Positions 6,953-9,518 are shown, numbered from the stretch's first letter. The stretch is 64,000 nucleotides of DNA from Escherichia coli (GCF_013315695.1 NZ_CP054353.1); one strand, 5' to 3'. The notes: generated by a model not told the origin, from the sequence alone. Program-made: numbers and translations.

Positions 6953-8677
6953 ATGCCGCGTGGCCTGGAATTACTGATTGCACAAACCATTCTGCAAGGC
7001 TTCGACGCTCAGTATGGTCGATTCCTCGAAGTGACTTCCGGGGCGCAGCAGCGTTTCGAACAGGCCGACTGGCATGCTGTCCAGCAGGCGATGAAAAACC
7101 GTATCCATCTTTACGATCATCACGTGGGTCTGGTGGTGGAGCAACTGCGCTGCATTACCAACGGCCAAAGCACGGACGCGGCATTTTTACTGCGCGTCAA
7201 AGAGCATTACACGCGGCTGTTGCCGGATTACCCGCGCTTCGAGATTGCGGAGAGCTTTTTTAACTCCGTGTACTGTCGGTTATTTGACCACCGCTCGCTT
7301 ACTCCCGAGCGGCTTTTTATCTTTAGCTCCCAGCCAGAGCGCCGTTTTCGTACCATTCCGCGCCCGCTGGCGAAAGACTTTCACTCCGATCACGGCTGGG
7401 AATCTCTGCTGATGCGTGTTATCAGCGACCTGCCGTTGCGTCTGCGCTGGCAGAATAAAAGCCGTGACATTCATTACATCGTTCGCCATCTGACGGAAAC
7501 GCTGGGGACAGACAACCTCGCGGAAAGTCATTTACAGGTGGCGAACGAACTGTTTTACCGCAATAAAGCCGCCTGGCTGGTGGGCAAACTGATCACGCCT
7601 TCCGGCACATTGCCATTTTTGCTGCCGATCCACCAGACGGACGACGGCGAGTTATTTATTGATACTTGCCTGACGACGACCGCCGAAGCGAGCATTGTTT
7701 TTGGCTTTGCGCGTTCTTATTTTATGGTTTATGCACCGCTGCCCGCAGCGCTGGTCGAGTGGCTACGGGAAATTCTGCCAGGTAAAACCACCGCTGAATT
7801 GTATATGGCTATCGGCTGCCAGAAGCACGCTAAAACCGAAAGCTACCGCGAATATCTCGTTTATCTACAGGGCTGTAATGAGCAGTTCATTGAAGCGCCG
7901 GGTATTCGTGGCATGGTGATGCTGGTGTTTACGTTGCCGGGTTTTGATCGGGTCTTCAAAGTCATCAAAGACAGGTTCGCGCCGCAGAAAGAGATGTCTG
8001 CCGCTCACGTTTGTGCCTGCTACCAACTGGTGAAAGAGCACGATCGTGTGGGCCGAATGGCGGACACCCAGGAGTTTGAAAACTTTGTGCTGGAGAAGCG
8101 GCATATTTCCCCGGCATTAATGGAATTACTGCTCCAGGAAGCAGCGGAAAAAATCACCGATCTCGGCGAACAAATTGTGATTCGCCATCTTTATATCGAG
8201 CGGCGGATGGTGCCGCTCAATATCTGGCTGGAACAAGTGGAAGGTCAGCAGTTGCGCGATGCCATTGAAGAATACGGTAACGCTATTCGCCAGCTTGCCG
8301 CCGCTAACATTTTCCCTGGCGACATGCTGTTTAAAAACTTCGGTGTCACCCGTCACGGGCGTGTGGTGTTTTATGATTACGACGAAATTTGCTACATGAC
8401 GGAAGTGAATTTCCGCGACATCCCGCCGCCGCGCTACCCGGAGGACGAACTTGCCAGCGAACCGTGGTACAGCGTCTCGCCGGGCGATGTTTTCCCGGAA
8501 GAGTTTCGCCATTGGCTATGCGCCGACTCGCGTATTGGGCCACTGTTTGAAGAGATGCACGCCGACCTGTTCCGCGCCGACTACTGGCGCGCGCTACAAA
8601 ACCGTATCCGTGAAGGGCATGTGGAAGATGTTTATGCGTATCGGCGCAGGCAGCGGTTTAGCGTTCGATTCGTATAA
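6953..8677 (+). CDS. aceK: isocitrate dehydrogenase kinase/phosphatase
   Basis: 574-aa ORF, AceK sequence; C-terminus ends ...RFSVRFV, 4 aa shorter than remembered K-12 AceK (578 aa). Confidence 0.93.
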
Positions 8678-8693
8678 ATCAGAGGCGAAAAAG

Positions 8694-9518
8694 TCAGCGC
8701 ATTCCACCGTACGCCAGCGTCACTTCCTTCGCCGCTTTAATCACCATCGCGCCAAACTCGGTCACGCGGTCATCGGTAATACGTGAAATCGGTCCGGAAA
8801 TAGAAATTGCGGCAAACGGTTCACGGTGCTCATCGAAAATACACGCTGCAAGGCAACGTAGCCCCAGCGCATGTTCCTCATCGTCAAATGAATAACCCCG
8901 TTTGCGCGTTTGGGCGAGATCTTCTTTTAAATGCACAGGAGACACTAGCGTTGCGTGGGTATAGGCATGTAACCCTTTGCGGTGCAGCAGCTTCGTCACC
9001 TGTTCTTCGCTCAGTTGGGCTAAAAAGGCTTTACCCGCACCGGAAGCGTGCATAGGTAATTTACCGCCGATAGGCGCGGACATTCGCATCAGGTGGGTAC
9101 ACTGTACTTGGTCGATAATAATCGCTTCATGATCGCTTTGATCAAGCACCGCCATATTGACCGTTTCGCCAGACTCTTCCATTAGATTGCGCAGGATAGG
9201 GTGAACAATTGCTAACAAATTACGGCTCTGGAGAAAGCTGCTGCCGACCATAAAGGCATGTGCGCCGATTGCCCAGTGTCCCAGTTCGCCAACCTGACGC
9301 ACGAAACCCTGCTGTTGCATCGTGGTTAGCAGGCGGTGGGTCGTGGAATTGGGTAACCCGGCTTGTTGCGCCAGCTCCGTGAGTGCCACACTGCCATTGG
9401 ATTCGGCAATCCACTCCAGTAATTTCAGGCCACGCGTTAAAGACTGAACCTGTCCAGTCGCTGGTGCGGTGGCAACGGCGGGTTTTCTGCCGCGTTTCGC
9501 GGGAATGGGTGCGACCAT
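8694..9518 (-). CDS. iclR: glyoxylate bypass repressor IclR
   Basis: ORF; start at MVAPIPAKRGRKPA (274 aa); convergent with aceK, only 16 bp apart. Confidence 0.93.
   Translation of the reverse strand: MVAPIPAKRGRKPAVATAPATGQVQSLTRGLKLLEWIAESNGSVALTELAQQAGLPNSTTHRLLTTMQQQGFVRQVGELGHWAIGAHAFMVGSSFLQSRNLLAIVHPILRNLMEESGETVNMAVLDQSDHEAIIIDQVQCTHLMRMSAPIGGKLPMHASGAGKAFLAQLSEEQVTKLLHRKGLHAYTHATLVSPVHLKEDLAQTRKRGYSFDDEEHALGLRCLAACIFDEHREPFAAISISGPISRITDDRVTEFGAMVIKAAKEVTLAYGGMR

Follow-up and report, generated by a model that had tools for sequence, protein, structure and literature searches.

A stretch of 64,000 nucleotides of Escherichia coli DNA (hereafter the window) raises the question of whether a gene that serves as a routine typing marker has been lost from this lineage or was never part of it. 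In K-12, arpA is found between aceK and iclR, while in the window the two genes face each other directly; the original prediction had noticed this absence and had left open whether a deletion or an insertion was responsible for it. Here the junction is compared with its K-12 counterpart, with other E. coli genomes and with the corresponding loci of related species.

The aceK-iclR junction in the window and in K-12

In the window aceK and iclR are convergent, both reading frames are intact and the two stop codons are 16 bp apart (bases 8678-8693; Table 1). The extent of iclR is that of the 825-nt RefSeq gene, a longer ORF to 9557 being possible; RefSeq also gives the same 1,725-nt aceK in MS 21-1, SMS-3-5, ST648 and CFT073, and annotates an identical iclR gene in MS 21-1. 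Neither the K-12 proteins ArpA and YjaA (tblastn) nor the K-12-specific DNA (blastn) have a match in the 64-kb window. The absence of arpA and the tight convergence of its neighbours, both predicted, are confirmed. The K-12 reference is a stretch of MG1655 (locus b4016-b4018; coordinates preceded by L001), where the stops of aceK and iclR are instead 2,471 bp apart, arpA lies in between and the last 32 bp of aceK are overlapped by arpA; thus, the spacing of the window is not shared by K-12.

Table 1. Positions of the genes, primer sites and junction elements, and state of the typing markers
Feature	Sequence	Position	Strand	Remarks
aceK	window	6953-8677	+	574 aa, 1,725 nt; isocitrate dehydrogenase kinase/phosphatase; C-terminus RFSVRFV (stop)
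iclR	window	8694-9518	-	274 aa, 825 nt; glyoxylate bypass operon repressor; Pfam HTH_IclR and IclR_C
arpA-free-specific junction	window	8668-8686		about 19 bp: last aceK codons, stop, most of the 16-bp spacer
AceK.f primer site	window	8279-8298	+	single exact match
Position homologous to the ArpA1.r target	window	8659-8678	+	8/20 mismatches, counted by hand from side-by-side sequences; only TAGCGT kept, the 6 bases facing the primer 3' end
yjaA position	window	1953-2025		73 bp where K-12 has about 470 bp; between 5S rRNA (1796-1911) and yjaB (2003-2479, -)
aceK	K-12	L001 10597-12333	+	
arpA	K-12	L001 12302-14488	-	728 aa
iclR	K-12	L001 14805-15629	-	
arpA marker	window			negative; no gene, no ArpA1.r site
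chuA marker	MSB1_4I			positive, 288-bp amplicon; both primers exact, inside annotated chuA
yjaA marker	window			negative; no primer sites, no YjaA homology
TspE4.C2 marker	MSB1_4I, fabY-fdhE interval			negative at usual locus
ybgD marker (phylogroup G)	MSB1_4I, 25 kb around gltA			negative at usual locus

The proteins are otherwise closely similar: 568 of the 574 residues of AceK are identical to those of K-12, and iclR displays 98.7% nucleotide identity with its K-12 counterpart. K-12 AceK has 578 residues and ends in RFSVRYGEMLF, so that the product of the window is indeed four residues shorter, as had been predicted. Pairwise alignment shows that the homology ends at window 8667 (K-12 12311) and restarts at 8687 (K-12 14798); the intervening bases of the window correspond in K-12 to 2,486 bp (L001 12312-14797), which comprise arpA and the arpA-iclR spacer. 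Once the synonymous differences in the S-V-R codons and the conserved F/Y codon are taken into account, the left breakpoint falls at aceK codon 572-573 (window ~8667-8672), in agreement with the prediction of a breakpoint in the 3' end of aceK.

The K-12-specific segment has a G+C content of 36.9%, versus 52-56% in aceB, aceA, aceK, iclR and metH. K-12 ArpA contains the Pfam domain Toxin_15 (ShET2 N-terminal region; E 1e-96) and ankyrin repeats, and RefSeq names it either 'EspL4' or 'ShET2/EspL2 family type III secretion system effector'; both the domains and the naming as an effector are consistent with acquired DNA. No target-site duplication or mobile-element ends are visible at the borders of the K-12 insert in the aligned sequences, and the literature on espL4/arpA offered nothing useful about the origin of arpA. 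An inverted duplication was also considered, as nine bases of the K-12 aceK tail (GCGTACGGT) recur in reverse-complementary form in the 3' end of iclR (ACCGTACGC); the match was attributed to chance, since six of its nine bases are the self-complementary CGTACG.

No inverted repeats were found in the region of the 16-bp spacer of the window, and a terminator scan returned one weak terminator-like hairpin, located in the last iclR codons and followed by CTTTTTC, which is kept in K-12 too. On the opposite side of aceK, two REP/BIME-like palindromic units lie in the 183-bp spacer from aceA (window 6770-6952); its ST648 counterpart measures 85 bp, 98 bp less, indicating that the REP copy number is variable within phylogroup F.

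The typing marker and the phylogroup of the lineage

The sequence AACGCTATTCGCCAGCTTGC, found at the position that had been predicted for it, corresponds to AceK.f, as published for the Clermont quadruplex PCR (PMC4322292). Its match in the window is exact and single, none being expected by chance, and the reverse primer ArpA1.r (TCTCCCCATACCGTACGCTA) has no site in the window at up to 3 mismatches, in line with the expected lack of a reverse partner. Given the mismatches at the position homologous to the ArpA1.r target, the 400-bp 'arpA' amplicon cannot form in the window. In the K-12 control, the AceK.f site at L001 11923 and the ArpA1.r site at 12303-12322 lead to a 400-bp product in silico; this amplicon (L001 11923-12322) stays within the reading frame of aceK throughout, the reverse primer alone falling on the 32-bp aceK/arpA overlap. 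For in-silico typing, this means that the amplicon named after arpA lies wholly inside aceK, with ArpA1.r alone on a putatively insert-derived tail, and the AceK.f/ArpA1.r reaction may be regarded as a detector of that tail.

MSB1_4I (NZ_LR898874.1) and OZ547117.1 match the window at 100% identity over stretches of 14 kb and 25 kb, and both are collinear with it; for MSB1_4I the collinearity spans 11600-61400 (99.986% identity, with 6 mismatches and 1 gap). The markers located outside the window, namely chuA, TspE4.C2 and ybgD, were typed in silico in MSB1_4I, used as a close proxy that need not be the source strain itself. The TspE4.C2 marker is located within an alpha/beta hydrolase gene between fabY and fdhE; by primer-pair query, each of 2,639 genomes has one such site. 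Between fabY and fdhE, MSB1_4I has neither the hydrolase gene nor either of the primer sites, the best primer match at this locus having 5 mismatches. In 25 kb around gltA of the same genome, the forward primer for ybgD finds no site even when 3 mismatches are allowed, and the only site for the reverse one, with 3 mismatches, is in sucB/odhB (annotated odhB) and looks like a chance match. The gltA-abrB interval of MSB1_4I contains only a truncated type 1 fimbrial pseudogene (L094 19817-20212, downstream of gltA); judged from the annotated genes, this lineage seems to lack most of the ybgD-ybgQPO fimbrial operon.

The absence of yjaA had been correctly recognised, its position being occupied by a short interval next to yjaB. 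The latter has a frame of 158 aa in the window and in MS 21-1, versus 147 aa in K-12, ST648 and CFT073, and is split by an IS3-family element in SMS-3-5 and in several poultry isolates.

The resulting profile, - + - -, together with the lack of ybgD, indicates that the source lineage belongs to phylogroup F, an assignment based on sequence markers read partly in MSB1_4I at their usual loci; the original prediction had proposed an arpA-negative, yjaA-negative lineage such as F or B2, and the first of the two is the outcome. The affinity of the metA-metH region agrees independently with this assignment. Over these genes the window is 99.05-100% identical to SMS-3-5 and 97.9-100% to ST648, which we take to belong to phylogroup F, compared with 96.3-98.7% to K-12 and 95.6-98.3% to CFT073. 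In particular, metA, aceB and aceA are 100% identical to those of SMS-3-5, and metH is 99.9% identical to that of ST648. SMS-3-5 is itself a member of phylogroup F (PMC7656184).

MS 21-1 is 100% identical to the window over 14 kb, yet it contains about 17.6 kb of phage-tail-like genes (sheath, tube, tape measure and baseplate) in one cluster that is absent from the window. In the window, an IS4 element at 25959-27305 (-) splits a gene for a nucleotidyltransferase-domain protein, IS1A at 28116-28883 adjoins lysC (28922-30271, -), and a slipin-family pseudogene is located at 24694-25821; it is in this IS4/IS1A region that MS 21-1 carries the cluster, together with ISEc53 and a ClbS/DfsB-family gene, both likewise missing from the window. 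Either a deletion associated with the IS elements or differing acquisition may explain the contrast. A second, identical copy of IS1A (53696-54463) interrupts dinF (52832-54934), the gene of an SOS-regulated MATE transporter, which is annotated as two partial pseudogenes in MSB1_4I. A DUF2713-family gene at 56134-57137 is annotated as frameshifted in the collinear MSB1_4I. Between malM and ubiC, an intact gene for a 'SopA family protein' (526 aa, 45739-47319, +) is present, at a position where K-12 presumably has the yjbI pseudogene. Finally, a sorbose-type PTS operon (16154-22672, between pepE and rluF) comprises a regulator, an SDR oxidoreductase, IIA-IID, sorE and a shikimate-5-dehydrogenase-like gene, and it is also found in CFT073, SMS-3-5 and ST648.

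Origin of the arpA-free arrangement

Among the complete E. coli genomes that gave a match (n=5,425), 1,314 (24%) have the contiguous aceK-iclR arrangement; in the remaining ones the match splits at query ~565-568 (window ~8664-8667), where arpA/'espL4' starts. Over the junction region, five arpA-free complete RefSeq genomes are at least 99% identical to the window, and four more, with 94-97% identity to it there, carry the same junction within 0-2 SNPs; the junction is also the same, within 0-2 SNPs, in CFT073 (B2, yjaA-positive) and in SMS-3-5 and ST648 (both F). An assembly artefact or a collapsed region can be virtually discounted as the cause of the missing gene, both because so many complete RefSeq genomes, including the five with at least 99% identity to the window, share the contiguous junction and because aceK and iclR are intact.

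One arpA-free genome labelled E. coli, NZ_CP169309.1 (MFDS1019527), shares only 93.9% identity with the window across the junction region, and the 3' end of its iclR diverges markedly. This genome keeps the same 16-bp junction and may represent a cryptic-clade or a recombinant lineage.

To place the junction among relatives, one genome per species was scanned, giving a list of 80 aceK loci from Enterobacteriaceae, in which the genus Escherichia is represented only by E. albertii. No ArpA homologue was detected by tblastn at any of the 80 listed loci, and iclR is convergent and downstream of aceK in all 76 where both genes could be placed. The AceK tail following RQRF-x-x-R-[YF] ranges from 0 to about 26 residues across the 78 listed loci with a readable aceK 3' end. 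In E. albertii, AceK ends in RFSVRFV, iclR is about 15-16 bp away, and the spacer can be aligned base for base with that of the window, with a few substitutions (GTATAAATCAGTGGCGAAAAGTTA vs GTATAAATCAGAGGCGAAAAAGTCA). For the lineages closer to E. coli, clades I/II (- - + -) and III-V appear as arpA-negative in published typing tables (PMC10894499), and arpA is missing from E. ruysiae genomes (PMC11997573). For E. fergusonii and the cryptic clades the arpA-negative status is taken from such tables; some strains of clade I are typed as arpA-positive. A 476-bp 'arpA' band in cryptic clades III-V had been considered as a sign of arpA in these outgroups; it was dropped, as the band is produced by AceK.f and chuA.2 within chuA (PMC10894499).

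From the low G+C content of the K-12 segment, the lack of ArpA at the listed loci, the E. albertii junction and the published arpA-negative clades and E. ruysiae, we infer that the arpA-free arrangement is very probably the original one, inherited and retained in B2, F and G, and that arpA is a 2.49-kb insert acquired by the ancestor of the other phylogroups. The convergence of aceK and iclR at 16 bp, with AceK ending in RFV, would already have existed in the ancestor common to the genus Escherichia and have been kept in phylogroups B2, F and G, whereas the ancestor of A, B1, C, D and E would have gained a foreign, A+T-rich segment encoding ArpA, a protein of the ShET2/EspL family with ankyrin repeats. 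The insertion would have replaced about 19 bp, including the last two aceK codons and the stop; the K-12-type AceK would thus read into the insert, ending in YGEMLF and generating the 32-bp overlap with arpA. If arpA was inserted elsewhere in the species, the AceK tail of the window would be ancestral and the K-12 tail derived. The C-terminus of AceK, which had been described as altered, does differ from that of K-12, but the window has the same tail as E. albertii and CFT073, and the alteration would have occurred on the K-12 side. In the same way, an event at the aceK 3' end is borne out, and of the two alternatives that had been left open an insertion in other lineages is favoured over a deletion in this one. 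A single insertion may however be too simple a description, given that horizontal movement of arpA alleles between phylogroups has been reported (PMC6113867).

The opposite direction, in which arpA was already present in the E. coli ancestor and was deleted in the ancestor of B2, F and G with clipping of the aceK 3' end, would fit the breakpoint inside aceK and the shorter AceK of the window; moreover, K-12-like 'RYG...' tails are found in several other genera, for instance RYGELKQAG and RYGNLQQAG, both followed by a stop. However, such a deletion would need to recreate the exact E. albertii junction, with its RFV ending, stop codon and spacer. Furthermore, arpA is absent from every other enterobacterial aceK locus listed (n=80), the G+C content of its segment, set amid values of about 54%, is typical of acquired DNA, and the cryptic clades are reported as arpA-negative, which together make a deletion highly improbable.

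Another route to the same arrangement would be a lineage that was once arpA-positive and in which homologous recombination with a donor, either B2-like or arpA-free in another way, restored the arpA-free allele. Exchange in this region is suggested by the mosaic aceK 3' region of F strains, where SMS-3-5 has K-12/B2-like substitutions at positions at which ST648 is the same as the window, and by the flanking genes: aceB and aceA, fully identical to SMS-3-5, are 98% identical to ST648, while metH, nearly identical to ST648, is 99.0% identical to SMS-3-5. The reported transfer of arpA alleles points in the same direction. On the other hand, all the F references examined are arpA-free with the same junction, the flanks are nearest to F and not to B2, and an arpA-positive intermediate is not required by any of the data; this route is therefore considered unlikely, and direct inheritance of the arpA-free arrangement remains the preferred reading.

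Functional meaning and comparison with known loci

The window AceK contains two full-length Pfam domains, AceK_regulatory (PF20423, residues 10-306) and AceK_kinase (PF06315, residues 310-564). Its residues 1-573 align to the crystallised E. coli AceK 3lc6, and the crystallised 568-residue chain 4p69 aligns to residues 4-571. Since the tail lies outside the kinase domain, whose Pfam end is residue 564, and is freely variable among enterobacteria, the change at the C-terminus is probably without functional effect.

The two states of the locus also differ in the arrangement of their 3' ends. In arpA-free strains the 16 bp between the aceK and iclR stops are too short to hold separate terminators; the K-12-type locus has instead an overlap of aceK with arpA, and a downstream region of 316 bp that belongs to iclR alone. 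A difference in the regulation of the glyoxylate shunt, arising from the convergence of aceK and iclR or from the AceK tails, is nevertheless very unlikely, although a change in AceK level or activity, or in iclR expression, would mean that a metabolic difference between phylogroups is hidden in a typing marker. It is also unlikely that the tight convergence alters transcript 3' ends to a significant extent in comparison with the K-12 overlap.

The significance of the locus is mainly in classification, as it places the lineage in the arpA-negative B2/F/G part of E. coli. Phylogroup F includes extraintestinal pathogenic clones, such as ST648 and ST354. The arpA-free aceK-iclR junction is the known basis of a routine marker, and as such it is already described and ordinary; what may be useful to in-silico typing is that the absence of arpA would be an ancestral state rather than a loss.

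Among the known loci, that of E. albertii NBRC 107761 is similar to the window in being arpA-free, in the RFV ending of AceK, in the gap of about 15-16 bp and in the alignable spacer; its flanking genes are 87-94% identical to those of the window, a divergence at the species level. The arpA-free locus of CFT073, SMS-3-5 and ST648 has the same features throughout, that is, an aceK of 1,725 nt with the RFV ending, 16 bp to the iclR stop, the AceK.f site present and the ArpA1.r site absent. Differently from the window, CFT073 (B2) has yjaA and its flanking genes are 2-4% divergent, while SMS-3-5 carries an IS3 in yjaB that is not found in the window. K-12 MG1655 shares with the window the flanking gene order (rrnE, yjaB, metA, aceBAK, iclR, metH), with flanks that are 97.2-97.3% identical, but it contains an extra 2,486 bp with arpA, an AceK of 578 aa ending in YGEMLF, the 32-bp overlap between aceK and arpA, and yjaA.
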